From contig JAFGDV010000004.1 in the NCBI GenBank assembly GCA_016931955.1, positions 1-29,519 on the forward strand: a DNA stretch of 29,519 nt. The letters are read 5' to 3'. Position 1 is the first letter of the stretch. Each line of letters opens with the position of its first letter. The position numbers and the translations under genes were made by a program. Below the pieces are notes generated by a model, which was not told the DNA's origin, did no database searches, and saw nothing but the letters and a program-made list of their open reading frames with translations. Origin of the DNA: Candidatus Altiarchaeota archaeon. Lineage in GTDB: Archaea; Altiarchaeota; Altiarchaeia; IMC4; QMZM01. This document shows positions 6,176-29,123 of the stretch, one piece after another.

Positions 6176-6176
6176 A

Positions 6177-7373: not shown

Positions 7374-7388
7374 AAAAAGAGGTGAAAA

Positions 7389-7706
7389 ATGGCAAAAACA
7401 AAAAAGAAAAAAACAACAAAAACAGCAATCAAGGATGCGAAGAAGTTTTTGAGCGACGTACCGGCTGATAAGTGCTTCTGGGTTAACAACGGTTGGATAA
7501 TGAGAAACCTGCAGGAGCTACCCCTCGCATTGGAAAACATGGGTGAAGAAACCTTCGTCTACCACGTGAACAAGGCCAAGAACGACTTCCACAACTGGAT
7601 AACCCATGTGATCGGGGATAAGACGCTCGCACAGGGTATAAAGAGTTCCAATAAAAAAGACATGTTAGCCAAAGTCAAGAAAAGGATAGCGCAGCTTAAA
7701 GGATGA
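7389..7706 (+). CDS. Small DUF5752-like protein associated with GH57/glycogen clusters
   Basis: Pattern FW..NG...RNL.EL...L..M..ETF.YHV....NDF.NW...V.GD..LA; RBS GAGGTGA upstream; ATGA overlap with the next gene. Confidence 0.7.
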   Translation: MAKTKKKKTTKTAIKDAKKFLSDVPADKCFWVNNGWIMRNLQELPLALENMGEETFVYHVNKAKNDFHNWITHVIGDKTLAQGIKSSNKKDMLAKVKKRIAQLKG

Positions 7707-9481
7707 ACAAGAATTACCTCTTTGAGGTTAGCTGGGAGGTCTGCAACAAGGTCGGGGGGATAAATACTGTTATAGTATCGAAGACCCCCTATCTGGTTAG
7801 GCACTACAAGGAAAACTACTGCCTCATAGGCCCCCACCTACCTGAGAAGGCGGTTGCCGAATTCCAAGAGAAGATCCCGCCAGATAAGCTGCACCACATC
7901 TTCGAGAGATTACATGGTGAGGGCATAGTATGCCACTACGGCAGATGGCTTATAAACGACAATCCATCGACGATATTAGTCGATTACACAGGATACACCA
8001 AAAAGAACAACGATATAAAGGCTAGACTCTGGGAGGAATACAAGATAGATTCTCTGGGGACATACTTCCATGACTTCGATGAGCCTATCCTATGGGGGCA
8101 CGCCGTCGGTAGACTACTTGAGGAGATATGCCAGTCATACAAGCGAAAAAAGGTCGCACAGTTCCATGAATGGTTGAGCTGCGGGGCCCTACTATACCTC
8201 AAGATGAGGAAGGTCAAGATAGGAACGGTTTTCACAACCCACGCCACGATGCTTGGGAGGACTCTGGCCGGCAATAATGTCGACCTGTACAACCTCCTTG
8301 GGAAGATAGATCCAGAAGAGGAAGCGTATAACTGGAATATGGCGGCAAAACACCAGGTTGAAAGGGTTTCAGCGCATGTCTGTGACGTCTTCACCACAGT
8401 AAGCGAGATAACGGCGATTGAGGCAGAACACTTCCTGAAAAAGAAACCGGATATCTTATTGTTTAATGGCATCGACCTAAAGAATCATCCAAGCTTCGAC
8501 GAGGTGGCAGTGAAGCATAGACTCTACAGGGAGAAGATAAAGGACTTCATACAGTACTACTTTTTCCCCTACTATTCCTTCGACTTGGATAACACACTCA
8601 TATACTTTATATCAGGTAGGTACGAGTTCCACAACAAGGGGTTGGACGTATTCATCCAAGCACTTGGTAAACTGAATCAAAAACTGAAAAACGAGAAATC
8701 GAAGAGATCCATTGTAGTATTCTTCTGGATTCCGGCCGACGTGGTGAGGATAAAACCAAGCCTGTCGAAGGCGCGGGCATATTATGATGACATAAAGGAT
8801 TCCATCAACGACGACATAGATACGATAAAGAAGAAGATGATCACATGCCTAGTATCCAAGCAGTCAATAACCGAATGCAGGCTGTTCTCTAATGATTTCA
8901 TGAATCAGACCGATAAGAAGGTCCTCAGGTTTCTGATACAGGGGAACCCACCACTCTGCACCCACGACCTCAAGAACGAAGAAAATGATCCGATACTTAA
9001 GAGCTTCAATGAAGAGGGCTTACTGAACAGAAAAGAGGATCCAGTGAAGGTCGTATTCTATCCCATATACCTGACAGGAGCAGATAGTCTATTAGACCTA
9101 ACCTACGACGAAGCAGTCATTGGATCACATCTGGGGGTTTTCCCATCATATTATGAGCCATGGGGTTACACCCCCCTCGAAACCGCCGCACTTGGTGTGG
9201 CATCTGTGACAACAGATTTCAGCGGATTCGGCAGATACCTTGAGATAGATTCTGCGAGGGATAACATGGGCGTGTTCGTCATAGACATGCTGGGTAAGAG
9301 TGACAGGAAAAAAGTGGATAACCTCTATGAGTCACTATACAATTTCTCTAGCTTAAGCACCGACGAGAGGGTGAGGAACAAGGTCGAAGCACAGAGGTTA
9401 TCGATCCTCGTGGACTGGGAGATACTCATCCACAACTATCTGAAGGCTCATCAGTTGGCTTTAGAAAGGGCATACAGGTAA
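7703..9481 (+). CDS. GT3 (eukaryote-type) glycogen synthase
   Basis: FEVSWEVCNKVGGI, FHEW, FTTHATMLGR, FTTVSEIT, GRYEFHNKG, FPSYYEPWGYTPLE. Confidence 0.93.
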   Translation: MNKNYLFEVSWEVCNKVGGINTVIVSKTPYLVRHYKENYCLIGPHLPEKAVAEFQEKIPPDKLHHIFERLHGEGIVCHYGRWLINDNPSTILVDYTGYTKKNNDIKARLWEEYKIDSLGTYFHDFDEPILWGHAVGRLLEEICQSYKRKKVAQFHEWLSCGALLYLKMRKVKIGTVFTTHATMLGRTLAGNNVDLYNLLGKIDPEEEAYNWNMAAKHQVERVSAHVCDVFTTVSEITAIEAEHFLKKKPDILLFNGIDLKNHPSFDEVAVKHRLYREKIKDFIQYYFFPYYSFDLDNTLIYFISGRYEFHNKGLDVFIQALGKLNQKLKNEKSKRSIVVFFWIPADVVRIKPSLSKARAYYDDIKDSINDDIDTIKKKMITCLVSKQSITECRLFSNDFMNQTDKKVLRFLIQGNPPLCTHDLKNEENDPILKSFNEEGLLNRKEDPVKVVFYPIYLTGADSLLDLTYDEAVIGSHLGVFPSYYEPWGYTPLETAALGVASVTTDFSGFGRYLEIDSARDNMGVFVIDMLGKSDRKKVDNLYESLYNFSSLSTDERVRNKVEAQRLSILVDWEILIHNYLKAHQLALERAYR

Positions 9482-9482
9482 G

Positions 9483-11222
9483 ATGCGGGTTCTTCACACA
9501 TTGGGCGATAAGACCATCTCCAGAAACGTTGAGGAGGATGTCGCCTTCATGCTGGGAAACAAGAAAGGCGGTTATGTCTATTTTTCTACAGGAAAGAAGA
9601 GCAGATACGAGGGCGTGTTCCTGCAACTGAACAAGAGGATGTACAGGGTCATCGCATACATCGGCCTTGAGAAAAAACCAGATAAGATAGTGAACAGGTT
9701 CCACTCAGTTGAGAGACACGTGAATGAGAACAGGGAGAGGTTTATGATGCCCTACAACCTAAACTCGATAGTCTACGAACTGGAGAAGGCTGATTGGATA
9801 AACATCTCGTTGGATGTTAGGGAGTCCTACGACACCTCAGCCCCTGGTTCATATGAGATCCTTGAGAAAGATAAAGCTGTGATAGTGAAATGCAGCAAAG
9901 ACGGTAAAGAATCCTTTGTCTCCATCAAGGCGGAGAGGCCAAAATATGAGCTCTTGGGGGAGTTCAATACAGACTACAATGAAAGAGACATGGAGAGGAA
10001 TTCCCCACCATATGAGATAATCGTACATAAAACATTGAGGGTCAGGTCAAAAAAGCTTGCAGTAGCTTTCTCAGACGACATGGAAACAGCAGTCAATGAG
10101 TCAACTCACGTGCTAAAGAACTTGAAGAGGATCAAAGAGGAACAGGAAAATCATGTGAAAGATCTCATAAAAAAGGAGGCTGTTGGATCAGATGAGACCT
10201 GGATGGCATACAACTGCTGCATCAACTCCCTGGATCAGCTCACCTGCCCTGATGGAATAGTTGCCGGATTCCCATGGTTCTTCCAACCTTGGACGCGGGA
10301 TGAACTGGTGTCTGTAAAGAAGGTAAGAAGCGATCTAGGAAAAAGAATACTCCTCAAGAATCTGGGTTACATCATGGACGACGGCAGGATACCCAACATG
10401 TTGTCTAACACAGAGGTCGTTAATGCTGACAGCATAGGATGGCTCTTCAAGAGAATAGATGAGTCACTACCTATGTTCAACAAAAAAGAGCGCAACCTCC
10501 TCAAAGAAAAATTAATCGAGAGCATAATGCGTCTCAATGAAACCCATGTGAAAGACCTGCTGGTATACAACAAACGAGGAGAGACTTGGATGGATTCATC
10601 CTACGATGATAATGGAAGAGAGGGCGCAAGAATCGAGATACAGGCACTGACGGTCTGCATGTATGGCATGGCATACAGGCTCACACATAACGAGAAATTC
10701 CTGCAGCTGAAGAGATTCTTGATTGAAAAGGTGAGACAGAGATTCTGGGATGGGGGCTACCTGAAGGATGGTTCAGATGATCCTACAATAAGACCCAATG
10801 CATTCATTGCGGCATACCTCTGCCCCACGATCCTAACCATGGATGAGTGGGCGACTTGCTTTGAGATGATCCTACCAAGGCTGTGGTGTGAATGGGGTGG
10901 ACTGTCTTCGATCGATAGAAAACATCCGCTCTACACTGAACGCTCTACTGGGGAGGACACTAAGAGCTATCATCGCGGGGATTCATGGTATTTTCTAAAC
11001 AACATGGCAGCACTTGTACTGCACAGGATTGACCGAAAGAGATTCCTGAAATACATCGGGGACATAGCTGAAGCATCAACAGAAGACATACTATGGAAAG
11101 GAATGATCGGGCACCACTCAGAGATAAGCTCTGCAGCCGAACAAAAGGCCGAAGGCTGCGGCGCCCAGGCATGGAGTGCGGCATTGTATCTTGAAATGAT
11201 AGACGAACTTTTTCTGAATTAG
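9483..11222 (+). CDS. Amylo-alpha-1,6-glucosidase (glycogen debranching enzyme, GH133-like)
   Basis: AGFPWF..WTRD, TWMD, IEIQAL, IRPN, YHRGDSW, QAWS. Confidence 0.88.
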   Translation: MRVLHTLGDKTISRNVEEDVAFMLGNKKGGYVYFSTGKKSRYEGVFLQLNKRMYRVIAYIGLEKKPDKIVNRFHSVERHVNENRERFMMPYNLNSIVYELEKADWINISLDVRESYDTSAPGSYEILEKDKAVIVKCSKDGKESFVSIKAERPKYELLGEFNTDYNERDMERNSPPYEIIVHKTLRVRSKKLAVAFSDDMETAVNESTHVLKNLKRIKEEQENHVKDLIKKEAVGSDETWMAYNCCINSLDQLTCPDGIVAGFPWFFQPWTRDELVSVKKVRSDLGKRILLKNLGYIMDDGRIPNMLSNTEVVNADSIGWLFKRIDESLPMFNKKERNLLKEKLIESIMRLNETHVKDLLVYNKRGETWMDSSYDDNGREGARIEIQALTVCMYGMAYRLTHNEKFLQLKRFLIEKVRQRFWDGGYLKDGSDDPTIRPNAFIAAYLCPTILTMDEWATCFEMILPRLWCEWGGLSSIDRKHPLYTERSTGEDTKSYHRGDSWYFLNNMAALVLHRIDRKRFLKYIGDIAEASTEDILWKGMIGHHSEISSAAEQKAEGCGAQAWSAALYLEMIDELFLN

Positions 11223-16866: not shown

Positions 16867-17244
16867 TTACCTCTTTTTTTTCATTGAATAGGCGATGTCT
16901 ATATAATATACTCCGTCTTTGACTTTCACAACCAATGGGTCTCCTTTCATCAAGGACGCAATATCCAATCTATACCTGCCTTCATCCAGCCTCAGCAGGT
17001 TCTCCACATCGAGGTGAATCGTCTTATCCGTTTTCTTTAATTCTTCGCCGAATCTATCATCCAGCCACCGGAGATCCTTTTTATCTAGTCTCTGATTCTT
17101 TAATTCATTGATCGCTTCTCTCCTGGACATGTCCTCCTTCTCCCGCAGGAAGAGGAAAACCCTGGCTCCGCAACCGCAGCCGTTGATCAGTTCAGGGGCG
17201 TTGTCTTCATATATCTTATTGCAGCGCGCACATTTATGTGGCAT
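16867..17244 (-). CDS. oapC: OapC/ArvC (DUF2072) Zn-ribbon protein
   Basis: MPHKCARC...GCGCGARVF, G.Y..DI repeats; third gene of the GTPase operon. Confidence 0.85.
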   Translation of the reverse strand: MPHKCARCNKIYEDNAPELINGCGCGARVFLFLREKEDMSRREAINELKNQRLDKKDLRWLDDRFGEELKKTDKTIHLDVENLLRLDEGRYRLDIASLMKGDPLVVKVKDGVYYIDIAYSMKKKR

Positions 17245-17250
17245 CTTACC

Positions 17251-17616
17251 TCATTTTTCTTTTTCCTTCTCGGCGAAGAGCAGTATCTTCTGAGGCTCTT
17301 TCTTCAGCTTTTTTATGAGCTTCGACGGTCCTATGACTGTTAAACCCCCGACTCTTCCGCCAAGCATCCTTATGAGTTTTTGCCGGATACCACCCTCAAT
17401 CTTCTCCTTCAAGGTGGATATCTCAATGCCCCTGAATTTATCATCTATTGCAGCCATAGTCTCCTCGATCAGCATGGTCTCCTCTAAGGTTGTAAGGCTT
17501 TCCTCTAAGACAAGGATCTTATCCCTCTTTATCTTCTTGAGGATGAACCTTATCTTCTCCTCCTTTTCCCTGTTATACAGGGCATCCGAAGATATGAACT
17601 CGATCTCTATCCCCAT
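17251..17616 (-). CDS. oapB: OapB/ArvB (DUF2073) protein
   Basis: EKIRFIL, ILVLEE.L...EE..LIE.TM, F.GIEI, GLTVIGP; operon context. Confidence 0.85.
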   Translation of the reverse strand: MGIEIEFISSDALYNREKEEKIRFILKKIKRDKILVLEESLTTLEETMLIEETMAAIDDKFRGIEISTLKEKIEGGIRQKLIRMLGGRVGGLTVIGPSKLIKKLKKEPQKILLFAEKEKEK

Positions 17617-17620
17617 CCTA

Positions 17621-18250
17621 TTACCTCGAATGTTTTGCTATCGTATCATAGAGTTCCTCAAGGTGTTTGCCTTTAAGCCCTGACACCTTGACTACGGGAT
17701 GCTGCGGGAAGGCCTCCTGTATCTGTTCAGGTTTAGCATCCTCCAAATCGATCTTATTGGCTATTATGATCACGGGAATACCCCTTGCTTCCAGGTTCCC
17801 GATTATTGTGATGTTCACCTGAGTGTAAGGATCCTTCGTGGAATCCATGACGACCAATGCTGTGTCAACGTTCTCAAGCCATTTTATGGCCTCAATAACC
17901 CCCTTCGTGGCTTCCTTAGCCCTCTGCTTCGCCTCCTCAACCGTCAGGCCGTGGCTGAGAAAATCCTCGTAGTCGATTTTCGTTGCAATCCCCGGCATAT
18001 CCAATAGATTCATGATAAGTTTCTTACCCCTGCTCTGGATCACGACACGCTCTTTTTTCTGCACCTCACGTGTCTCATGAGGGATCTCTGAGACGGTGCC
18101 GACTGGCTCTCCAGTCCAATCCATAGAAATCTTGTTCGCCAGAGTGGTCTTACCAGCATTCGGCGGTCCATAGAATCCCAACCGAATGATCTTTCGTCCG
18201 CCGAACATCCGCTTGAACCAACCGACCAGACGTCTCCAAGGCACAGTCAA
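17621..18250 (-). CDS. oapA: OapA/ArvA Era-like small GTPase
   Basis: GPPNAGKTTLAN, IPHETR, DMPG, DPYTQVN, NKID. Confidence 0.9.
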   Translation of the reverse strand: MTVPWRRLVGWFKRMFGGRKIIRLGFYGPPNAGKTTLANKISMDWTGEPVGTVSEIPHETREVQKKERVVIQSRGKKLIMNLLDMPGIATKIDYEDFLSHGLTVEEAKQRAKEATKGVIEAIKWLENVDTALVVMDSTKDPYTQVNITIIGNLEARGIPVIIIANKIDLEDAKPEQIQEAFPQHPVVKVSGLKGKHLEELYDTIAKHSR

Positions 18251-19447: not shown

Positions 19448-19912
19448 TTATTTCTTGACTTTTATCGTTTCCAGTAACCTGCCCATCCTCCCAACGAATT
19501 CCCTTGCAGTCCCCAGTGCATTTTCAGCTTCCTCCTCCGTCGTAAAGAAGCTGATGCTATACTGGTCCTCATGCCTTAATTCCCTGTAATGATCCAAGAG
19601 TTCAACCCACTTGCTCTCCAATAAGTTCTTCTTAACGTACCTATCTTGGAGATATCTTGCTATGCAGAAGTGGCTTTTCTCTCTGAAGCCATCAAAGAAA
19701 AGTATCGCCCTTGCGGAATGGAACATTGCAAGATAAGATGATAGAATAGACGAATTGAACGTTCCTGCTCTCAAATCCTTTTCAGCATCGCCCAACCATC
19801 TCCTAGCAGCATTTATACTGTCTTCTGCTTTTTTCTTTGAGGGTGGTATTCTCCGGAGCAAACCAGAACTCAAACAATCCTTTAGATTAGATACCCTCAA
19901 TTCCCTCACCAT
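19448..19912 (-). CDS. HEPN-domain toxin (DUF86/SaV_6107-like)
   Basis: YLAMFHSARAIL...G.REKSH, RELRHEDQY; directly downstream of an MNT gene; exact start uncertain. Confidence 0.85.
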   Translation of the reverse strand: MVRELRVSNLKDCLSSGLLRRIPPSKKKAEDSINAARRWLGDAEKDLRAGTFNSSILSSYLAMFHSARAILFFDGFREKSHFCIARYLQDRYVKKNLLESKWVELLDHYRELRHEDQYSISFFTTEEEAENALGTAREFVGRMGRLLETIKVKK

Positions 19913-20429
19913 ACACAGTTATCGAACCAAAAACAAGAGAATGGTAAAATACCATATCATCCTTTTTTAATGTTTTAATTTTGTCCTCTGTAAGATACAA
20001 AGGTCTTACGTTCCCATACCTCCTCTTTAATTCATTCGTCAGTTTTGCAAGATCCACATCATCCGTTTTCTCAATAAATATCCACAAATCCATATCGGAC
20101 TCTTCCGTGTTCATGCCTCTGACAAAGCTACCATATAACCCAGCACCCCTCACGAATCCATATCTTCTGAACACCCGGTGGTCGATACTGCTCAGGTTCA
20201 GCAGCATCTTAAGGGACCTCACATATACGTTATCAAGAACACCGAATTCACCGTTCAGCCTCCTTAAAATCCCGTTCTTGATAAGCAAAGCGAAGTACTT
20301 GGAGACCATGCCCTTACTCAGTTTTGTTTCGCTGGCAACTTCATTCACGCCTAACGATTCGATTCTGTAAATAACTCTTTTGAGTATCTCCACCCTTTCC
20401 TTCGTTGAAAGCAAAGTTTCTAAGTTCAC
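19887..20429 (-). CDS. wHTH-MNT nucleotidyltransferase antitoxin
   Basis: N-terminal HTH (VNEVASETKLSKGMVSKY); LYGSFVRG....SDMDL Pol-beta motif. Confidence 0.88.
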   Translation of the reverse strand: MNLETLLSTKERVEILKRVIYRIESLGVNEVASETKLSKGMVSKYFALLIKNGILRRLNGEFGVLDNVYVRSLKMLLNLSSIDHRVFRRYGFVRGAGLYGSFVRGMNTEESDMDLWIFIEKTDDVDLAKLTNELKRRYGNVRPLYLTEDKIKTLKKDDMVFYHSLVFGSITVYGEGIEGI

Positions 20430-20484
20430 GATTTATATATATGTTGTTCATGATTTATAAACTCTTTGTTCACGTTATGGAAAC
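20424..20484. promoter_or_regulatory. Three operator-like repeats GTTCAYGWT.. spaced 22 bp apart, over the MNT start and promoter
   Basis: GTTCACGATTTATA 20424, GTTCATGATTTATAAAC 20446, GTTCACGTTATGGAAAC 20468. Confidence 0.7.
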
Positions 20485-20627
20485 ATCAGCTTCAGCGTCT
20501 TCTCTCTCGACCCTTTGTTCCTGTAAGCCGCCGGGTTGTTCTGGTGTATCATACCTTACAGTTTAGTTTATGGGTTTGGCAGGGCATTATCCTCTGCCAG
20601 CCAGTCATCCCTGTTTTCCTGTTTTGG
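20477..20627. repeat. Degenerate direct repeat copy A (paralog of 22331-22469)
   Basis: Shared blocks TTGTTCCTGTAAGCCG, TTGTTCTGGTG, TGGGTTTGGCAG, CTGTTTTC.TGTTTTGG. Confidence 0.85.
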
Positions 20628-20671
20628 ACTCGACGGCTTTTTATTCTCTGGTTCACTATCCCTTTTTATAG

Positions 20672-20739
20672 GACAAATGCACCAGTGATACACACATAGG
20701 GGATACGTGGTCGATCTGTTTTCTTGTCCAAAGGCGTGT
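20672..20739. repeat. Degenerate direct repeat copy A' (paralog of 29418-29483)
   Basis: Identical 18-mer GGGGATACGTGGTCGATC plus alignable flanks. Confidence 0.8.
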
Positions 20740-20792
20740 TCTAATAAGGGCTCTTGCATCTTTACGTTATATCTCCCAAGATTTATATCTTA

Positions 20793-21563
20793 CTAATGGA
20801 GATCAGAGATATGCTGTTTGTTGGGCCTTATTTTTGCAAGTATGTTTTTTTCGGTTTCTTTCAGGTCTGGGAGTGATGGCACTAGGGGTTGCAGTTCGGT
20901 TTTCCATGCTTTTTCTGTTATGTTGAGTTTTTTTCTGAAGTTTTTCGGATCCCATCCCTTGCCGTAGTACTTCATCTTTTCTTTGGCGAGTTTTTTGTCG
21001 AATCCGATGCCTTTCGTTAGTAGGAATTGTAGGTCGTAGATGTCTCTGGCTTTGTTTCTCGTTAATATTGCCCTGATTTTTTCTGCTAGTATCTCTTTTT
21101 CCTGCATTACGTAGACGTCGAATGAGGGTATTTCGTTGAGGAATCTGCCGATTGTTTTCACTTGAGGCGGCAGGATGACGTTTTCTCTGAAGCTGAGGTC
21201 GACTATGAATTTGCAGAGCGTCTGACGTATTCCTGTATAAAGGGGTCCATGTAGTCGGTAGATTGTTTTGATGCCGTTGGGGTATTTTTCGGCTTCTTTT
21301 TCGTATTCTATTCCGAACCTCTTTAAGCCGCGGTCAAGGATTTTGGTGTCTGTTTTTTCTGTTGAGGTGAAGTCCAAGTCTTCGCTGAATCGGTCGAGGC
21401 CGTAGCATTTCTTCAGTGCCGTGCCTCCTTTGAAGATCAGTTCTTTTCCGTATTCCTGATACAGGACGAACAAGGCTATGCTTTGGAAGTAGTCTTTCTC
21501 TGCTTGTCCGAGGTTTAGGCGGGTTGTTTTCGCGTATTCCTGCAGTTCTTTTTTTGTTATCAT
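20793..21563 (-). CDS. AbiEii-family nucleotidyltransferase toxin (type IV TA)
   Basis: EKDY, FKGGTAL..CY...RFSEDLDF, AEKIRA..R.KARDIYD; start set at the ATG overlapping the AbiEi stop. Confidence 0.92.
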   Translation of the reverse strand: MITKKELQEYAKTTRLNLGQAEKDYFQSIALFVLYQEYGKELIFKGGTALKKCYGLDRFSEDLDFTSTEKTDTKILDRGLKRFGIEYEKEAEKYPNGIKTIYRLHGPLYTGIRQTLCKFIVDLSFRENVILPPQVKTIGRFLNEIPSFDVYVMQEKEILAEKIRAILTRNKARDIYDLQFLLTKGIGFDKKLAKEKMKYYGKGWDPKNFRKKLNITEKAWKTELQPLVPSLPDLKETEKNILAKIRPNKQHISDLH

Positions 21564-22243
21564 GTCTTCACCCTCCACTTGGCATTTGATTTAATTCCCT
21601 CAGAGAATGGATCCAGTGATACATAATTTCTGTCGAGCCGGAATTTTTTAGAGATATCGATTCCCTTAGCCTCTTCAAGCAGGTAGCCGGACCTTTTTGT
21701 GACCGCCTGTTTGTTTACTCTCTTTAGGTATTCGACCAGTTTTTCCGCGGATAGGTCGGCTTTTTTGAATATGTTCCGTATTTCGTCGATGTTGCCTGCT
21801 TTTTCGGGTCGTAGGAGGCAGTCTATTGCGAGTTTTTCGTCTTCTGAGATGAACAGTTCTCCCTCATCTGTCCTGATTTTCCGGTATCCGAAGAAGTGTT
21901 TAATGGGTATGAACTCTATCCTGTATCCCTCAAATTGGATGGGAAGTATCCTTCTTCTCGTGGCTACGTGTACTGTTTTGAGTATCTGCTCCGTGTATCC
22001 CAGGAAGGCGGACGCAGACCAGAAGGATATGTATGAAGGGTATGTTATGTTGCTTGCTATGAGGTGTATGTCTGTTTTTGTCGTGTATGCGTTTCTCCTC
22101 ACTTTTTTTATTAGTTTTTTTGCTTTCAGCCTCTGTATCATCTGTTTTGCATTTTGTCTGCTGTGTCCTGTTAGCCGTTCCACGTCCTGGATCCTGAAGA
22201 CCGGCTTTGCGCGTAGTCTGTCAAGCAGTTCGATGTTTTTCAT
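21560..22243 (-). CDS. AbiEi-family antitoxin / wHTH regulator
   Basis: N-terminal wHTH, PSYISFWSA..F.G.TEQI, EK...DCL, KRSGYLLE; coupled to AbiEii. Confidence 0.88.
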   Translation of the reverse strand: MKNIELLDRLRAKPVFRIQDVERLTGHSRQNAKQMIQRLKAKKLIKKVRRNAYTTKTDIHLIASNITYPSYISFWSASAFLGYTEQILKTVHVATRRRILPIQFEGYRIEFIPIKHFFGYRKIRTDEGELFISEDEKLAIDCLLRPEKAGNIDEIRNIFKKADLSAEKLVEYLKRVNKQAVTKRSGYLLEEAKGIDISKKFRLDRNYVSLDPFSEGIKSNAKWRVKT

Positions 22244-22634: not shown

Positions 22635-23375
22635 ATGGCTGTTAATCGCGTTAAGTCAGGTATCTCTGGTTTAGATGAGTTGATTCAGGGTGGTTTTCCT
22701 GAAGGTTCTTCAGTCCTTGTTACTGGCTCTCCAGGTACAGGGAAAACGATTTTTGGTTTGCAGTTCCTCGTTGAAGGAGCGAAAAACAACGAACCTGGAA
22801 TCTATCTGACCTTCGAGGAAACCAAGAAAAAGGTCTTAGATCAGGGCGAACAATTTGGCTGGGATCTTGGAAAATTGGAGAAAGAAGGTAAGCTGATTAT
22901 TAACTCTGTTAGTGATGCCGACATTGGTGAGATATTAAAGAATTTGTCGGATGAGACCAAGAAGATCAAGGCTAAAAGGCTCGTCATAGATTCTCTTTCC
23001 ACTCTTTTGGAGTCGGCTCGTCGTTATACTTCCAAGCTTCAGAAGGAAGTACACAAGCTTGGTAAGGGGGAGCATGGTATATGCTTGCCTGAGCCGATGG
23101 AGAAGGTTACTCGTGAGGATGTCTTCTATATCATCCGTGAGATAAACAAGCTTGAACTAACAACGTTAATGATATCCGAGGCTCCTAAGGAGGGGGACTA
23201 TCTTTCAAGAGATACGATTTCAGAGTTTGTCTGCGATGGTGTTATCGAATTAAAGGCGATAGGGGGTATAGGTAAGAGAACGTTAACGATCAGTAAGTTG
23301 CGATCTACCCAACACAACATTACTTCCTTGGATATGGGGATCACAGATAAGGGCATAGCTATTGAAGCAACGTAG
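22635..23375 (+). CDS. Single-domain KaiC/RAD55-like ATPase 1
   Basis: RVKSGISGLDELIQGG.P, GSPGTGKT, TFEE, RLVIDS, CDGVI, KLR finger; RBS GAGGTGG. Confidence 0.92.
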   Translation: MAVNRVKSGISGLDELIQGGFPEGSSVLVTGSPGTGKTIFGLQFLVEGAKNNEPGIYLTFEETKKKVLDQGEQFGWDLGKLEKEGKLIINSVSDADIGEILKNLSDETKKIKAKRLVIDSLSTLLESARRYTSKLQKEVHKLGKGEHGICLPEPMEKVTREDVFYIIREINKLELTTLMISEAPKEGDYLSRDTISEFVCDGVIELKAIGGIGKRTLTISKLRSTQHNITSLDMGITDKGIAIEAT

Positions 23376-23387
23376 TTTTGATTAATC

Positions 23388-24128
23388 ATGGAAAGAACCA
23401 ATACAGGGATTAAAGGACTTGATAAGTTATTAGGTGGGGGAATACCTAAAAATCACTTGGTACTTTTAACAGGACAGACAGGAGCAGGCAAGACCATTCT
23501 TGGACTTCAATACTTAATAAAAGGAGCAATAGATTATGGTGAAAAAGGAATTTACATAAGCTTTGAGCAGGGGAAAGAAGATATCCTCCTACAAGCAAAG
23601 CAGTTGGGGTGGGATGTAGAGGATCTTGAAAAAAAAGAATTGGTTAAGGTTCTCACCTTCAAACCAGGGAAAACACATCTTACAGTGATAACAGAAAATC
23701 TTGAAGAAAATGTTAAGAAATTCAACCCAGAAAGATTAGTTTTTGACTCAATCTCTACGTATGGCATCTACGCTGAAACTTTCAGCTTTTTTGAGATGGC
23801 AATGGACTTGGGGCTGAATAAAGAGAAAGTCAATTTTGGTTTGACTCCAGAATCAGCCACAAGAAAAACTATAATGAATATAATGGAAAAGATAAAATCT
23901 TTTAATGTAACCTCTTTAGTAATTTCAGAACTCCCAGAAACAACGAGTTATCTCAGCAGAGACACGATTTCGGAGTTCATCGCTGATGGTGTTATAATCC
24001 TAAAACATGTGCCAATAGGTAATAATCTTAATAGGAGCATTGAAGTACGGAAAATGAGATGCACTGAGATGGGAGAAGGAACCTATTCTTACACTATAAC
24101 TAAAAAAGGTATTGTGGTGGAGGGATAA
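23388..24128 (+). CDS. Single-domain KaiC/RAD55-like ATPase 2
   Basis: TGIKGLDKLLGGGIP, GQTGAGKT, SFEQ, RLVFDS, ADGVI, KMR finger. Confidence 0.92.
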   Translation: MERTNTGIKGLDKLLGGGIPKNHLVLLTGQTGAGKTILGLQYLIKGAIDYGEKGIYISFEQGKEDILLQAKQLGWDVEDLEKKELVKVLTFKPGKTHLTVITENLEENVKKFNPERLVFDSISTYGIYAETFSFFEMAMDLGLNKEKVNFGLTPESATRKTIMNIMEKIKSFNVTSLVISELPETTSYLSRDTISEFIADGVIILKHVPIGNNLNRSIEVRKMRCTEMGEGTYSYTITKKGIVVEG

Positions 24129-25264
24129 TGGACTTGAAGGATAGCGCACTCAGGTTTTATGTGAAGGGATATATTATACCAAGAGCTCTTATTTTCGACA
24201 AGCCAGGTTTCGTTGATTTTAGGATATCTGGGAAAACCGAAATTTTTGCAAGACAACTTATCCTCCCAGAAAGTTTTTTTGTGAAACTGGAACAAAATTT
24301 AATCGAAAAATTTGGTGAATCTGCTGAAAGAATGATGTATTCTCTCGGTAAAAGATTTGGATATAGTTTTGCCCAACAAGGAAGATTTGAAAATACTAAA
24401 GATCATCCTGGAGATAAAGTGAAAAATTGGATTGTTGTGGCAAGTAAATTCGTTGAAGGAACTTACGCTAGTAATATCTCTCAGACAATAGATGTAAAAA
24501 AGAAAATTGTAGATTATACCCTGAAGAACTTTGTCGTATGTAGGAAATTAGGATATGACTTCTTCTTCGCTACAGGTGGCGCAGCAGGTCTTATTGCATG
24601 GATTCTGCAAGATCCAAAAATAGAGGGGCGACTATATGACAGCAAATTTAATGAAGAAGAACATGTTTGCAAAGTTAAATGTGCACCGATGGAAATATTA
24701 AAAGAATCATTTGAGGATAGACTTTACGTTGAGACTAACCTTGGTGGTTTAGAGCAAGATCCTGCGACATACCGAGATTTCAACCGTGAAGTAGATATCC
24801 AATGGAAAAAATCATTCCAGACTTTCTTGGATGCTAAAATATTCAACTATGCCGGCGGTATAATATCCTATAAAAATGAGCGTTTTTTCCTTATGGAAGT
24901 GAGTGGCGTGTACCTATTGGAAAAGGGGATGGAAACCGAAGATATGAAAAAAATAATGTTTGATTCAGCGTTTTCTGTGGGAAAAGAGATATTTAGTGAC
25001 ATAGGAAAAAACGATGTTTTGAGTATCATGGAGTTGCTTTCAGCTTTGGGTTGGGGTGAGGTCTCTATATATCCCTCATCCAAAACGAAGGTTATAATGA
25101 CCCATTTTCCTTGGACAAAATATTATAAAGACGTGGAGTATATACTCATCAGGGGACTGCTTTCCGGGATTATCTCAAGAATATACGGTAAAGATATCAT
25201 CTATGGAAAGCCCGGTTTGGATATATCAACTGGTCATTTATCCCTGATTTTTGAGCCGAATTAA
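24128..25264 (+). CDS. Tandem V4R-like (XylR-N/4VR fold) ligand-binding protein
   Basis: Two repeats of R..L.P/E...L...(Y/F)..G...G, LSALGWG, G..(A/S)G(L/I)I patterns typical of V4R proteins; most Zn-binding cysteines missing. Confidence 0.6.
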   Translation: MDLKDSALRFYVKGYIIPRALIFDKPGFVDFRISGKTEIFARQLILPESFFVKLEQNLIEKFGESAERMMYSLGKRFGYSFAQQGRFENTKDHPGDKVKNWIVVASKFVEGTYASNISQTIDVKKKIVDYTLKNFVVCRKLGYDFFFATGGAAGLIAWILQDPKIEGRLYDSKFNEEEHVCKVKCAPMEILKESFEDRLYVETNLGGLEQDPATYRDFNREVDIQWKKSFQTFLDAKIFNYAGGIISYKNERFFLMEVSGVYLLEKGMETEDMKKIMFDSAFSVGKEIFSDIGKNDVLSIMELLSALGWGEVSIYPSSKTKVIMTHFPWTKYYKDVEYILIRGLLSGIISRIYGKDIIYGKPGLDISTGHLSLIFEPN

Positions 25265-25265
25265 A

Positions 25266-26048
25266 ATGAAAAAAATAGGGCCTGTGGAAAGGAAGATATA
25301 CGAACTAAGACAAGAACACCCATTTGTTATACCCCAAGTTGATCCTGATAAATTTAACTCTGATACAGTTACTGAACTTTTCAGTGATATCAGAGAGATG
25401 GGCATAAACCATATTGCAGTAGGAGGAACAATACTCGATATGACCTCTTTTCAAAAAATCGTTGACATAGCGGTCAAAGATTTTGATTTCACTCTCGTTA
25501 CATATATGACAAATACTGCTATTGGTCTTCTTCAAGGTTACTCCAAGAAAACAGCCGTTTATTGGATGACTGTTCTGAATTCAGAAAATCCCTTTTATCT
25601 GAGGGATTCACTGATTATGTGCTCCATTGCAGTATCACTCCACGATTTTGAACCGCTTCCGACAGCATACGTTTTTGATGACCGTGGTTCTTTCATGGCG
25701 GCTAATTGGCTTGCCCGCGTGGTTCCTGTGCCTCGGGAGGAGCAGTCGATTAGTCTATCTATCGCATTGGCAGCTGAATTTTCAGGTTCCAGGTTTTATA
25801 TTATGGCGGGGGGTTCTGAGAGTAAACTCCACCCCCCCGCAGACCATGTGAGATTATTAACAAAGGAAACAGACTTATTTGTTATCCCTACAAGTGGAAT
25901 TAGAACGCTAAAACATGCAGAGGAAATGTTTGAGGCCGGTGCGGATGCCATACATGTCGGAAGATTGATTGAGGATAAAAAAGGCTTAGACATATTATCT
26001 AAGATTGTTAAATCATCGAAAAAGTATCCTGGTAAAGAGTTTTTATGA
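25266..26048 (+). CDS. Divergent GGGP/HepGP synthase (PcrB-family TIM barrel) paralog
   Basis: VDPDK, AVGGT, LNSENP, EPLPTAY, ALAAE, GIRT, AGAD match group II GGGPS; YLEAGSG reads YIMAGGS and GGGIR reads TSGIR. Confidence 0.82.
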   Translation: MKKIGPVERKIYELRQEHPFVIPQVDPDKFNSDTVTELFSDIREMGINHIAVGGTILDMTSFQKIVDIAVKDFDFTLVTYMTNTAIGLLQGYSKKTAVYWMTVLNSENPFYLRDSLIMCSIAVSLHDFEPLPTAYVFDDRGSFMAANWLARVVPVPREEQSISLSIALAAEFSGSRFYIMAGGSESKLHPPADHVRLLTKETDLFVIPTSGIRTLKHAEEMFEAGADAIHVGRLIEDKKGLDILSKIVKSSKKYPGKEFL

Positions 26049-26752
26049 AAAAATCAGTTCTCTGGAAGAAGATACGTGACATAGAGTATATTGTCTTTGA
26101 CTTTGATGGCTCTATTTACCCATGCATCCTCTTACTTGACTTGGCCCTAGACTTCTTTTATTCTTATAGTGGAGAAAAGGGGGAGTTTATGGCAGAAAAA
26201 CGCTCGAGACTCCTTAGTTTGATTGGTGAAAAAAACAAAAAAAGTTTTTATGAGCTTTCGTTAGAGTTTGCCTCTGTTCTTGAAGGGATTCCATGCGTTG
26301 AATTCAACAAAAAAATCCCTGTTTTTCTGCAGAATTGTTATCCAAATGCCTTAAAGTTTATTAATGCCTTAAAGAAGCGGGGGAAAAAATGTTTTCTTGT
26401 TTCTTTGACTTCTGAGGCAGTTTCTAGAGAGGCTATGCAGATGTTCGGTTTTGATGGCTACTGGTGTAGGACACTAAGAAAGACAATAAAAGAAGGAGTT
26501 GAGTTCTTTGATGGAAATTATGTTGACAACATTAATGATCTTACCGAATTCAAAGCTAGGTGCTTAGATGAATTCAAAATCCGAGATGAAGTTTTTGGTA
26601 TGGTAGGAAATGATGTAGAGGATGTTCTATTGTTTGAATCGGCCTATCTAAAAGTTGGTGTTAATCCAACAAAAGAATTAATGGATGAGGTCGATTTGGA
26701 TTTTGTTTTGGTTGACAGAAAAGATCCGTGGAGTAAATGCATTGATTTTTAG
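26045..26752 (+). CDS. HAD-superfamily phosphatase (SerB-like)
   Basis: Motif I FDFDGS, motif II LVS, Lys in FKAR, motif IV GNDVED, VNP; ATGA overlap with the upstream gene. Confidence 0.85.
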   Translation: MKKSVLWKKIRDIEYIVFDFDGSIYPCILLLDLALDFFYSYSGEKGEFMAEKRSRLLSLIGEKNKKSFYELSLEFASVLEGIPCVEFNKKIPVFLQNCYPNALKFINALKKRGKKCFLVSLTSEAVSREAMQMFGFDGYWCRTLRKTIKEGVEFFDGNYVDNINDLTEFKARCLDEFKIRDEVFGMVGNDVEDVLLFESAYLKVGVNPTKELMDEVDLDFVLVDRKDPWSKCIDF

Positions 26753-26772: not shown

Positions 26773-27060
26773 ATGAAGTTAATAGTCTTTGTTTTTATAT
26801 CCCTTGTTGGGGCTTATTTGGGAGATTTTTTTAGTTGGTTTTTGTTTTTTTATGTCTATATACCTTATTGTTGGTGGTTTTTTATGTCGGAGGATTTTAG
26901 GGGTTTTTTGATTTTGTTTTTGGTCGGCTGTTTCATTGCATTCATGTGGTTTGGCGGTTTTGTTAGGGGCTCTTTTATCGAGTTTGTTGTTGGAAGTTTC
27001 CTGCTTTTTTCAGGCATTCTAATGTATCTGATTTATGAACACATCTATGACCCTAGGTGA
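26773..27060 (+). CDS. Small hydrophobic membrane protein (true start may be ATG 26884)
   Basis: Phe/Leu/Gly-rich putative TM segments; GGTGG before ATG 26884; T-rich DNA makes a spurious ORF possible. Confidence 0.45.
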   Translation: MKLIVFVFISLVGAYLGDFFSWFLFFYVYIPYCWWFFMSEDFRGFLILFLVGCFIAFMWFGGFVRGSFIEFVVGSFLLFSGILMYLIYEHIYDPR

Positions 27061-27210: not shown

Positions 27211-28443
27211 ATGTTGAAGTGTCCTGTCTGTAGGGAAAAGGTTCAGAAGGTGTGGGTTTTCTGTCCGAGGTGCAGTGCGAGGCTGGATTCTAGCTTAGAT
27301 AATAAGTATCATTTAGAAAGTATACGGTATCTCTGGGAGCGGCAGGAGGGTGGGAAGTTTTTGTATTCGAATTTTGAGGCAGTAAAAAATGCAGGTATTA
27401 TGCCGTACAAGAAAGTTGAATCCATACGTTCTGTTTTAGGAGATTTTGCGCATATATACTTCCATGGCTTATATGAACTTTCACTTCTTTATGTGGTTCC
27501 TGCTTTTGCGGCAGAGTTCTACAAAATCGGCAAGTTCATAGGATATTATAGTGCATATGAAGCCATAGAGACGTTAAGATTGGAAAAGCTTGTGAACGCC
27601 CTAAGTAAAACAGCTTTGTTTTGGGAGATTTTTCAGAATAGTAAGGTACAGGCCGCTCAAAAGAGAGGATGGAGGGCTGTAGGGGCTGCAGTTATTGATC
27701 TGACAGAAATTGATAAAGAAAAAAGGATGCTGAAGTATGTGATGGACTATTCGGTTGAGTCAATATTCCATAACACGTCTAAGCCCACTTGTTTTCTAGC
27801 GTGCGGTATCTTGTGTGGCAATGTTGAGTCTCTTTTTGGCGACTTTTGTGATGGAATCGAAACAAAATGCAGATCTACCGGAGATCTACAATGCGAAATT
27901 GAAGCTTATCTGCATGAAAGGGAAGAGAAGCCAAAAATAATCCCCTTAACACGAGATGAAGCCGACACACTACTTAATGAGTTAATCGGGTACGTTATCA
28001 ATAAAAGAATCCTAGATAGGAAGGAATTAGGTGATTCTGTTCATATTATATCCCCCCAGTGTCAAAATTACCTGCTACTTTCGATTTCGCCCGGCCACGC
28101 GGTTCTTTCGAGATATGCTGGGAGGGTCTGCGGGGAAAGGATTGCAAGAGAATCAGAGCTCCAAGGATTAGAAAACGCACTGGAATATCTGGAAGACCTT
28201 TTCCTCCACTTGAAGGCAGGCATACTTCAATGTGAAAAAAGGCAGGATAGGCTCATAATCAGGATGCGTGAATCTGTCTATGCCTCAGGCGTAAACAACA
28301 TCCACATGAATCTGTGCATCTTTCTTGCTGGAATCATGGAAGGAATACTGAATGAGGTGACAGATAAGAAGTGGGACGTCAACGAAATAAAATGCATCGC
28401 AAGCGGCTTCTCAGAATGCGAATTCTGGTGTAAGACTATTTGA
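27211..28443 (+). CDS. Zn-ribbon plus two V4R (4-vinyl reductase) domains
   Basis: CPVC..CPRC; C.FLACGILCG...ETKC...G...C and C.FLAGIMEG...EIKC...G...CEF, both with C/E/C/C Zn ligands. Confidence 0.85.
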   Translation: MLKCPVCREKVQKVWVFCPRCSARLDSSLDNKYHLESIRYLWERQEGGKFLYSNFEAVKNAGIMPYKKVESIRSVLGDFAHIYFHGLYELSLLYVVPAFAAEFYKIGKFIGYYSAYEAIETLRLEKLVNALSKTALFWEIFQNSKVQAAQKRGWRAVGAAVIDLTEIDKEKRMLKYVMDYSVESIFHNTSKPTCFLACGILCGNVESLFGDFCDGIETKCRSTGDLQCEIEAYLHEREEKPKIIPLTRDEADTLLNELIGYVINKRILDRKELGDSVHIISPQCQNYLLLSISPGHAVLSRYAGRVCGERIARESELQGLENALEYLEDLFLHLKAGILQCEKRQDRLIIRMRESVYASGVNNIHMNLCIFLAGIMEGILNEVTDKKWDVNEIKCIASGFSECEFWCKTI

Positions 28444-28467: not shown

Positions 28468-29123
28468 TTATTTCATGCATTTTGTGAGTATGATGTTTTT
28501 GTCTATGATCCAGTGGGGTAGTTTTTCTCTGAGTTCGCGGGAATAGCCTGCTGGTACGGATGTGCTATATACTTGCTTATTGTGGTATTTTATTATTTCT
28601 GCGGCAGGCAGAAAGTCGGCGTCTCCGGAGAATAGGATACATTGGTTGCATTCGTTTTTGATTATGCATATGTCGAGCATATCCACCGCCATCATGACGT
28701 CAACCCCCTTCTCTCTTTTCCTGATGTTCCCTATGCAGCCCCTACAGTTAGCCTCTATCAGAGGACGGTAGCTGTCACACAAATCAAGGCTGTCTATTAT
28801 CGCCTGCTTCTCTGCTAACACTTCCTGGGTTGAGTGCCTCTGCAGCTTCCTTGTTTTAACAACAAAACCAGGCAGCTTACGTATATCCTCTAAGAACCTC
28901 ATATGATCATATACATTTTTTCTCCGTCACTGATGCTGGGAACCGAATTATAGTAATAGGTTTTACTTCGAATGCAATTAAAATGCTGACAGACAAGTTC
29001 ACTTAACTTGTAAAAATCTACGAAACTCGGCTTTATGTCCATTGATCTTATGTTGTGGTAGAAGTTGTTACCGTCTATGAAAACAATTGCGTGCCTCTCA
29101 GAAGAAGTTCTTCCAGCCATCAA
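28468..29123 (-). pseudogene. NYN/LabA (PIN-fold) RNase split by a 1-nt frameshift near 28900-28921
   Basis: N part FIDGNNFYH..YYY; C part EKGVDV..AVD, FSGDADF; the two ORFs join by adding one nucleotide. Confidence 0.82.

Follow-up and report, generated by a model that had tools for sequence, protein, structure and literature searches.

The window analysed here is a 29,519-nucleotide stretch of DNA from a Candidatus Altiarchaeota archaeon (GCA_016931955.1, contig JAFGDV010000004.1, positions 1 to 29,519, forward strand). Its gene at 25266..26048 on the plus strand encodes a 260-residue divergent paralog with the PcrB/GGGPS fold, i.e. the fold of geranylgeranylglyceryl phosphate synthase (GGGPS), in which the catalytic Glu/Tyr pair is lost and TSG replaces GGG. 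The gene comes fourth in a run of closely spaced genes on the same strand. It starts one base past the stop codon of the upstream gene, which encodes a V4R-like protein, and its own stop overlaps the start of a HAD phosphatase gene by four bases. The start codon, ATG at 25266, agrees with the N-terminus MxKIG that its relatives share.

The paralog matches the Pfam family PcrB (PF01884) with 47.8 bits against a cut-off of 23.9, aligned from position 8 to 222 of the 226 profile positions. It remains under the cut-offs of the NCBIfam enzyme families: NF003198 (133.8 against 247), TIGR01769 (78 against 161.55), TIGR01768 (81 against 113.25) and NF003201/2 (87.5 against 353 and 69.6 against 388). 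All 32 sampled sequences from outside the family described below (29 representatives and 3 canonical copies) pass NF003198, with 250.5–330.5 bits against 247. A search of a protein atlas with the paralog returned generic PcrB clusters only, and fused or longer forms were not found at E <= 1e-10, which is weak evidence. Scores so far below the enzyme cut-offs would fit a pseudoenzyme, i.e. a protein that binds a prenyl diphosphate, geranylgeranylglyceryl phosphate (GGGP) or another phospholipid intermediate and serves as the sensor or carrier of a KaiC/V4R module, reporting or buffering isoprenoid-lipid levels. On all the evidence presented below we regard a pseudoenzyme as unlikely.

The nearest solved sequence relatives found by phmmer belong to group II GGGPS, with the M. 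thermautotrophicus enzyme (MtGGGPS, 4mm1) at E 1.5e-23, followed by TaGGGPS (6jo3) at 8.9e-19 and the F. johnsoniae enzyme (FjGGGPS, 4jej) at 1.6e-17. An AF2 model of the paralog, built on 24 family members (pLDDT 90.1), has the modified (beta-alpha)8 barrel of the GGGPS type. It aligns to seven group II GGGPS entries with Z-scores of 29.6–31.6 and a root-mean-square deviation of 1.9–2.4 over 235–245 residues, and the identity in structural alignments to group II enzymes (MtGGGPS, TaGGGPS, TvGGGPS 6nke and FjGGGPS) is 20–25%, all sharing the same modified TIM barrel. MoeO5 is structurally further away (Z 25.3–25.4 over 236 residues), PcrB and the A. fulgidus GGGPS reach Z 23.4–24.8, and unrelated TIM barrels (tryptophan synthase alpha/BX1) stay at Z <= 16.2. 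Judged by this model, the gene product is a real PcrB/GGGPS-fold protein that is closest to group II GGGPS. The same fold and this closeness would also be expected of a regulated or condition-specific GGGP synthase isoenzyme, which joins sn-glycerol-1-phosphate (G1P) and geranylgeranyl diphosphate (GGPP) by another catalytic arrangement, with the HAD phosphatase being unrelated or acting later. We hold such an isoenzyme to be quite improbable, and several of the results below speak against it.

The genome from which the window derives (1.55 Mb, 46 contigs, 92% complete) contains a second PcrB match, of 174.1 bits, on another contig (C38). This second gene has the canonical YLEAGSG and VGGGIR motifs and adjoins an open reading frame (ORF) that scores 435.6 bits, with a cut-off of 413, for the equivalog family of NAD(P)-dependent G1P dehydrogenase. 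Thus, the gene at 25266..26048 is a true paralog, present beside a canonical GGGPS on another contig. Unlike the canonical gene with its dehydrogenase neighbour, the paralog is encoded in an operon of KaiC, V4R and HAD genes. The genome also encodes one polyprenyl synthase (258.9 bits) and two UbiA genes, and the polyprenyl synthase means that the prenyl donor can be supplied. In the other paralog-bearing genomes tested, 5 of 5 have a PcrB match of 134–148 bits elsewhere; the Pfam search of these five genomes re-found the paralog itself in one only. A canonical copy is therefore kept in all 6 paralog-bearing genomes examined, which counts against an isoenzyme. Upstream of the canonical GGGPS on C38 lies a gene for a secreted-looking protein of 483 residues with long Thr-rich linkers and Cys-rich repeats.

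Relatives of the paralog form a sharply bounded family. In a collection of 5.8 billion proteins, 79 cluster representatives have 45–62% identity to the paralog, and after them come a fragment and one protein with 27%. An exhaustive search of 1.84 billion representatives gave 264.6 and 253.6 bits and then 96.6 bits for the next full-length protein. Where source names are given they are Diapherotrites/Iainarchaeum bins, and the genes are often labelled "phosphoglycerol geranylgeranyltransferase". Relatives were also found at 21 loci, drawn from one genome per GTDB species: five in Iainarchaeum, six in Micrarchaeota/Micrarchaeia, two in Nanohalarchaeota and eight in further archaea.

Phylogenetic trees separate this family from all other GGGPS. 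A FastTree analysis of 159 rows combined 21 family members with the 6 canonical copies of genomes that also encode the paralog and with 132 of 145 non-family representatives, as 13 representatives outside 215–300 residues were dropped. The family is one clade in this tree (support 100, stem of 1.41 changes per site), and it is again a clade in an IQ-TREE analysis of 70 rows under LG+C20 (SH-aLRT 100, stem 1.58). In both trees the canonical copies of paralog-bearing genomes sit outside the paralog clade. The 79 clusters, which derive from DPANN genome bins, therefore form a discrete clade set off by a long stem, and the paralog does not nest among housekeeping GGGPS, which the preliminary description of this DNA, written from the sequence alone, had named as the outcome that would undo its idea of a rewired acceptor site. 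A placement of the clade's origin within the GGGPS tree was considered and rejected, since FastTree and IQ-TREE attach the clade at different points. In both trees, the canonical GGGPS of the source genome (L001, on C38) does not group with those of the other five genomes that carry the paralog.

The residue counts given here refer to the 79 clusters of the family and, for other GGGPS, to the 138 non-family rows of a MAFFT L-INS-i alignment of 159 sequences. In the accessible text of a review of the fold (PMC9385802), the Mg2+ and diphosphate of the donor are bound by an Asp, D13 in A. fulgidus (Af) and D25 in M. thermautotrophicus (Mt). The donor side was described as kept in the paralog, and this is correct, as DPDK (26–29), VGGT (52–55) and LNSENP (104–109) are all present. 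The columns of these motifs in other GGGPS hold D in 134, G in 134, S or T in 134 and N in 108 of the 138 rows. Both phmmer and hhalign align D26 with the Mg2+/diphosphate Asp, and the residue is D in 79/79 family members. Residues of this kind are usually lost by pseudoenzymes, and thus the invariant Asp and the kept GGS/T and LNSxN motifs argue against such a role for the paralog.

The acceptor side is different. The review (PMC9385802) calls Mt Y134, Y178 and E180 strictly conserved and responsible for stereospecificity and catalysis, and the Glu (Af E167, Mt E180) polarises the C3 hydroxyl of G1P. The register of this region was checked by phmmer, by MAFFT L-INS-i and by profile-profile alignment with hhalign (24 family against 31 canonical sequences). 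All three aligners place RFYIMAGGS of the paralog on R-x-x-YLEAGS without a gap, so that the Tyr falls on I179, the Leu on M180, the Glu on A181 and the Ala on G182, and the G-S-G of the loop is retained in the family, with E185 in this copy. A gapped motif alignment that sets the Glu against Met180 was rejected, as the three aligners give the ungapped register. The reported change from YLEAGSG to YIMAGGSE was accordingly right about the loss of the Glu and wrong about the register, and its final E is private to this copy: position 185 is G in 72, N in 5, E in 1 and D in 1 of the 79 clusters, and the E is the present protein.

The loss of the pair is nearly uniform in the family. At the Glu column the family has A in 74 and G in 5 of 79, against E in 100 and D in 37 of 138 other GGGPS, where neither A nor G is among the five commonest residues. 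An isoenzyme is hard to reconcile with an acid in 137/138 other rows and in 0/79 family members. At the Tyr column (Mt Y178) the Ile is found in 78/79, against Y in 114 of 138. The third of the strictly conserved residues, Mt Y134, is retained as Y135 (79/79). Two of the three residues with a role in catalysis or stereospecificity (PMC9385802) are thus lost, a point in favour of a pseudoenzyme, and the kept Y135 is one in favour of an isoenzyme. The latter could also draw on W148, which lies in a mostly aromatic column of other GGGPS (Y in 55, W in 20 and F in 20 of 138); on our reading of PMC9385802 this column may be the hexamer anchor of group II.

Two further motifs had been described as altered on the acceptor side. 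The change from GGGIR to TSGIR is real and fixed, with T209 in 77/79 and S210 in 79/79, against G in 123 and G in 134 of 138. The change from FPG to YMT is so only at its first position, where Y80 is fixed (79/79 against F in 132 of 138); the family is variable at the two residues that follow (L/I/P and T/S, respectively). The substitutions are not common among other GGGPS, another outcome that had been named as fatal to a rewired site: S is found in 1/138 at the second Gly and Y in 2/138 at the Phe column, and T is not among the five commonest residues at the first Gly. The changes are fixed across the whole clade, and they are therefore not due to chance.

The phosphate site appears to be altered less. 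According to PMC9385802 the standard phosphate loops carry S,G in beta-alpha6, G,G in beta-alpha7 and V,G,N or T in beta-alpha8, and in AfGGGPS the phosphate is bound by the backbone of the Gly-Gly in beta-alpha7. In the family, S184 is present in 79/79, G185 in 72/79 and G232 in 78/79, G211 is kept, and position 233 is N, S or T in 57/79. The claim that the G1P-binding motifs are changed hence overstates the case: the glycerol side is rewired (Y178 to Ile, E180 to Ala), but the phosphate site (S184-G185, G211, G232-N/S/T) appears largely retained in the family, and this retention would again suit an isoenzyme. The present copy has S184 and E185, T209-S210 in place of G-G, and G232 followed by R233. 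The described change of the terminal GT/GN to GR applies to this copy, and is not a trait of the family, in which position 233 is N in 32, S in 17, T in 8, K in 7, A in 5, R in 4, Q in 4, H in 1 and G in 1. The extra deviations of this copy in the phosphate loops are a point in favour of a pseudoenzyme. E185 (25818–25820) and R233 (25962–25964) occur together, and the sole other member with an acid at position 185 (P0030, an Asp) also has Arg at 233. They may perhaps be a compensating pair or form a salt bridge over the phosphate site, as suggested by these two sequences only.

In place of the lost residues the family has new polar ones. Q24, D138, R140 and H194 are each found in 79/79 and H230 in 76/79, and these columns were also counted over the 21 family rows. 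In other GGGPS the same columns hold L (119 rows) for Q24, I or V for D138, G, S or P for R140, M, I or V for H194 and V (108 rows) for H230. In the secondary structure of the model, Q24 belongs to beta1, D138 stands at the end of beta5 and R140 shortly behind it, H194 is near the start of the helix after beta6, and H230 belongs to beta8. By their place in the secondary structure all five residues would face the catalytic side and could line the pocket. D138, at the end of a strand neighbouring the lost Glu, can be speculated to be the replacement base. The long stem and these invariant new polar residues argue for a changed function and not for drift, and so against an isoenzyme. In sum, features shared with group II GGGPS are the Asp for Mg2+ and diphosphate, Tyr135 (Mt Y134), the motifs GGS/T and LNSxN and, it appears, the greater part of the phosphate site. 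It differs from them by Ile/Ala for Mt Y178/E180, by TS for the GG of beta-alpha7, by Y for the F of FPG, by a 4-residue insertion after beta3 and by the new invariant Q24, D138, R140, H194 and H230.

The run of genes that contains the paralog begins with two KaiC-like ATPases of 246 residues each, at 22635..23375 (+; Pfam PF06745, 204.5 bits) and 23388..24128 (+; PF06745, 195.4 bits). Their Walker A motifs read GSPGTGKT and GQTGAGKT, and neither protein reaches the NCBIfam cut-off of a circadian KaiC equivalog. The stop of the second overlaps the start of the next gene, 24128..25264 (+), which encodes a tandem V4R/XylR_N-like protein of 378 residues that belongs to no Pfam family and is a predicted binder of small hydrophobic ligands. 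The paralog is followed at 26045..26752 (+) by a HAD-IB family phosphatase of 235 residues with the DxDGS motif as FDFDGS. It scores 30.7 bits for Pfam HAD, with a cut-off of 27, and 26.2 for Hydrolase, with a cut-off of 26.4. Its score for TIGR01490 (32.9) is under the cut-off of 98.3, and an orthologue at another locus (L007) lies above it with 113.6. The HAD protein has no match at E <= 1 among PDB sequences.

Two more genes follow on the same strand. A small hydrophobic ORF at 26773..27060 (+; 95 residues, no Pfam match) has no BLAST match in the related loci L006–L026, and since it is not conserved there its membership in the module is doubtful. A Zn-ribbon and V4R protein of 410 residues, encoded at 27211..28443 (+), matches Pfam V4R in two stretches (74.1 bits) and Zn_Ribbon_1. 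It likewise has no BLAST match in L006–L026, and it shows no similarity to the profile of the tandem V4R-like protein (hhalign probability 0.4%). This protein is thematically related and lies outside the conserved module. A scan for promoters and terminators gave counts near the expectation from shuffled sequence; the consensus used is bacterial and the host is archaeal.

The order of KaiC-like ATPase, tandem V4R-like protein, paralog and HAD-IB phosphatase is a conserved operon. At all 19 related loci with upstream DNA the V4R-like gene is found upstream of the paralog, directly adjacent in 18; at L023 the two are separated by about 1.2 kb. At 18 of these 19 loci the V4R-like gene is in turn immediately preceded by a KaiC-like gene, so that of the two ATPases of the window the one at 23388..24128 is the conserved copy; a second KaiC-like copy, upstream or downstream, is present in L006, L007, L008, L017, L021 and L026. 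The HAD gene follows the paralog at 19 of the 21 loci (12 found by BLAST and 7 more by Pfam or NCBIfam), and at the remaining two the contig edge is reached downstream of the paralog. Five of the 21 loci have a flavoprotein of the geranylgeranyl reductase (GGR) family, 346–359 residues long, within the operon, between the paralog and the HAD gene in L013, L016, L018 and L025 and upstream in L022. These flavoproteins score 128–141 bits for TIGR02032 and 176–220 for NF008519. With a KaiC-like ATPase and a V4R/PoxR-like sensor fold, the operon holds two signalling-type proteins, as would be expected around a pseudoenzyme with a sensor role. However, a sensor-like protein is then already encoded next door, and the HAD phosphatase (19/21 loci) and the GGR-family reductase (5/21) are pathway enzymes that need a substrate.

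The 378-residue neighbour has no Pfam or NCBIfam match at 0.01, and its 20 orthologues have a mean column identity of 63%. Pfam V4R does not match it at E <= 10, and XylR_N matches the family weakly, in 6/20 orthologues with a best E of 0.0051, which is below the cut-off. In its AF2 model (pLDDT 84.7), residues 11–204 align with the phenol-sensor domains of PoxR, MopR and DmpR at Z 12.7–13.7 over 163–177 residues, a structural match to the whole sensor domain. More distant matches are Bet3/TRAPP (Z 8.2–11.5), the V4R protein MJ1460 (Z 9.7) and H-NOX (Z about 6). The second half (205–378) is barely covered structurally and has a weak MopR profile match at 224–271 (E 0.19), and the order of secondary-structure elements is repeated in the model. 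The weak match and the repeated order suggest that the protein consists of tandem copies. Folds of the V4R, phenol-sensor, H-NOX and Bet3 type bind small hydrophobic ligands such as phenols, haem and, covalently in one Bet3 entry, palmitate. A complex prediction for the V4R-like protein and the paralog scored 0.00 without controls and is evidence neither way.

The Bet3 entry with covalently bound palmitic acid, 6aq3, is among the matches of the model (Z 8.7), and it brings up another role for the operon, in salvage or remodelling. In this small-genome archaeon, which may obtain lipids from partners, scavenged ether lipids or prenyl phosphates would be handled by the paralog and the phosphatase, perhaps through reverse or exchange reactions, and the V4R-like and KaiC proteins would extract or carry the lipid. 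The GGGPS/PcrB family is not known to us to catalyse a reverse reaction, and we give this role very little credence. The match to Bet3/TRAPP, 6aq3 included, is in its favour.

The link between the V4R-like protein and prenyl transfer extends beyond the paralog. Of the 61 genomes of the phylum to which the window belongs, 14 contain homologues matched by a profile of the 378-residue protein, with the close form (>600 bits) in three only (G000, G058 and G059); the loci of G058 and G059 again have KaiC, V4R-like, PcrB-like and HAD genes. A scan of one other genome of the same genus (73% complete) with this profile gave no match. The distant homologues form 18 loci in 11 genomes, at 137–294 bits. 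The scan of these loci covered 51 of 84 ORFs and left aside the 22 V4R-like ones as well as 11 that are short or at an edge. Eleven of the 18 loci (8 of 11 genomes) have a UbiA-family prenyltransferase as an immediate neighbour, and at 10 of 18 a KaiC-like ATPase is adjacent; UbiA is followed by a GGR-like FAD protein at 2 of 18, and MFS transporters are adjacent at 2. Among the ORFs scanned at L046 and L048, no link of the UbiA/KaiC type was found. Since both PcrB-like and UbiA proteins are its neighbours, the pair of ATPase and V4R-like protein is associated with predicted enzymes of prenyl transfer that have two unrelated folds. That UbiA enzymes take the same slot in sister modules is a further point against a pseudoenzyme. 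On one contig (C66 of G057, L042/L050) two consecutive tandem-V4R-like genes and two KaiC-like genes are found, with a gene for an undecaprenyl-diphosphatase (BacA) nearby, which connects the module once more with the chemistry of polyprenyls.

We suggest, at roughly even chances, that the paralog is an active prenyltransferase with a changed phosphorylated acceptor, and that its product is then dephosphorylated by the HAD phosphatase. It would be a soluble TIM-barrel prenyltransferase descended from a group-II-like GGGPS. The prenyl diphosphate would be bound and ionised through the invariant Asp26/Mg2+ site, and the acceptor would be anchored by its phosphate in the standard site of beta-alpha 6/7/8. 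G1P would no longer be used, as the inward-facing Tyr/Glu pair of beta6, which serves the glycerol hydroxyl, has become Ile179/Ala181. Recognition of the acceptor, and possibly base catalysis, could have been taken over by Q24, D138, R140, H194, H230, T209 and S210. The HAD-IB phosphatase would then strip the phosphate handle from the prenylated product, and in some lineages the GGR-family flavoprotein of the operon would saturate the chain. The substrate or product, being hydrophobic, would be bound by the tandem V4R-like protein, with the KaiC-like ATPase coupling this binding to regulation or hand-off. The paralog and its phosphatase would thus be the soluble counterpart of the UbiA prenyltransferase found beside the distant V4R-like homologues. 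Of the two possibilities raised in the preliminary description, an enzyme with a new acceptor or product and a non-catalytic sensor, the enzyme is favoured by the operon context, i.e. by the HAD-IB, GGR-family, V4R-like and KaiC-like proteins.

Several observations weigh against an active enzyme of this kind. The general acid/base of the family is gone, and D138 is put forward as its substitute from strand position only. The Thr-Ser in place of the Gly-Gly of beta-alpha7 could weaken phosphate binding, and since E185 and R233 deviate in the phosphate loops, this copy in particular might bind phosphate poorly. A conserved polar pocket fits a dedicated ligand sensor equally well. The GGR-family proteins are below the TIGR02032 cut-off of 158.8 bits, and the three UbiA proteins scanned are far short of all NCBIfam cut-offs. 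FastTree and IQ-TREE join the clade to the GGGPS tree at different points, and the genomic context is guilt by association among related, non-independent genome bins. As for which acceptor might be used, the mirror image of G1P, glycerol-3-phosphate made by GpsA, was considered and is unsupported, since PF07479 is found in 0/5 genomes (G000–G004, incomplete bins) and glycerol-3-phosphate might arise otherwise.

A changed acceptor has a precedent in this fold. MoeO5 of the moenomycin pathway transfers farnesyl to 3-phosphoglycerate, with the same fold, a changed acceptor and the phosphate handle kept, and it is named as the precedent in the accessible text of PMC9385802, as the preliminary description had stated. 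However, MoeO5 is structurally further from the paralog than group II GGGPS are (Z 25.3–25.4 against 29.6–31.6), and it is absent from the phmmer matches of the paralog at E <= 1. Without a sequence match at this level there is no sign of a common descent of the acceptor change.

The product of B. subtilis PcrB is dephosphorylated and then acetylated, which would parallel the pair of paralog and HAD phosphatase. Bacillus PcrB, a heptaprenylglyceryl phosphate synthase, is also a soluble PcrB-fold enzyme outside core membrane-lipid synthesis (PMC9385802). It differs from the paralog in that it keeps the G1P pocket (PMC9385802), has no KaiC or V4R partners and gives the weaker structural match (Z 23.4–24.8).

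The closest analogue of the V4R-like protein and its ATPase partner is the group of XylR/DmpR/MopR/PoxR activators, which carry XylR_N and V4R. The first half of the 378-residue protein superposes on their whole sensor domain (about 191–206 residues, 7 MopR/PoxR entries), and full-length DmpR (6iy8) has the same sensor fold (Z 13.2). These phenol-responsive activators, like the operon of the paralog, combine a P-loop ATPase with a sensor fold for hydrophobic ligands. However, the sensor fold in the operon is duplicated in tandem and lies on a separate polypeptide without a DNA-binding domain. The ATPase is of the RecA/KaiC type in the operon and an AAA+ sigma-54 type in the activators, and the partners in the operon are putative prenyltransferases.

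The operon region has the look of an island. Between 22000 and 28000 the GC content is 0.376–0.400, against 0.459–0.525 over 5–19 kb of the window. Two toxin-antitoxin-like pairs, HEPN with a nucleotidyltransferase and AbiEii with AbiEi, lie directly upstream at 19448–22243 (-), and the PcrB-type module is patchy, being found in 3 of 61 genomes of the phylum. The low GC, the toxin-antitoxin neighbours and the patchiness together make the module look accessory and possibly transferred. A role in salvage or remodelling would sit well with such a patchy module and with a low-GC stretch beside toxin-antitoxin genes, as for an accessory trait. However, the genome itself encodes a polyprenyl synthase, a canonical GGGPS, a G1P dehydrogenase and two UbiA proteins, and it is therefore not obviously dependent on salvage.

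Three other features of the window are recorded here. Genes for OapC (PF09845) and OapB (PF09846) are found at 16867–18250 (-) beside a small GTPase, and a replication origin may lie near them, for example in the gene-poor stretch around 18.7–19.4 kb. A glycogen-type cluster at 4910–11222 (+) encodes a GT4/GT5 glycosyltransferase, a GH57 enzyme, a PF05693 glycogen synthase and an amylo-alpha-1,6-glucosidase (GDE_C), which is notable for a genome of 1.55 Mb. Downstream of the operon, at 28468–29123 (-), an NYN-domain gene is present as two overlapping ORFs, 28899–29123 and 28468–28902, of which the latter only matches Pfam NYN (profile positions 72–138). A frameshift may account for the split, or the gene may be broken.

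In archaeal membrane lipids, the first ether bond is made by GGGPS, which also fixes the stereochemistry. The accessible text of PMC9385802 treats the glycerol-phosphate pocket of both known groups as strictly conserved, and the accessible part of PMC6431249 describes only two classical paralog groups of GGGPS, very divergent matches having been removed. A description of the paralog clade or of the link between V4R and prenyltransferases was not found in the searchable literature, PMC7888582 included, which does not cover supplements, where the neighbourhood may be listed. The clade is likely a third functional class of the GGGPS fold.

The active prenyltransferase proposed above leads to a more specific picture, which we offer tentatively and consider rather doubtful as a whole. 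In it, the clade would ether-link an isoprenoid to a phospho-acceptor other than glycerol phosphate, and the dephosphorylated and, in some lineages, saturated product would be an unseen archaeal prenyl lipid or signal whose level is sensed by the V4R-like protein and transmitted by the KaiC-like ATPase. If this is true, it would be the first KaiC-type circuit that is gated by a ligand and linked to isoprenoid chemistry, and it would exist in two non-homologous versions of the module, a soluble one with the PcrB-like protein and HAD and a membrane one with UbiA. The chemistry of the fold would then be widened beyond G1P, used by GGGPS and PcrB, and 3-phosphoglycerate, used by MoeO5.

The label "phosphoglycerol geranylgeranyltransferase" on genes of this family is probably wrong, and wrong GGGPS labels inflate inferences on the lipid autonomy of DPANN genomes. 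The fixed link of KaiC and V4R-like proteins, seen also beside UbiA, offers a testable handle on the role of one family of archaeal KaiC-like ATPases. The clade itself could point to lipids or signals of isoprenoid type that are new for DPANN archaea, a group in which few measurements of lipid biology exist.

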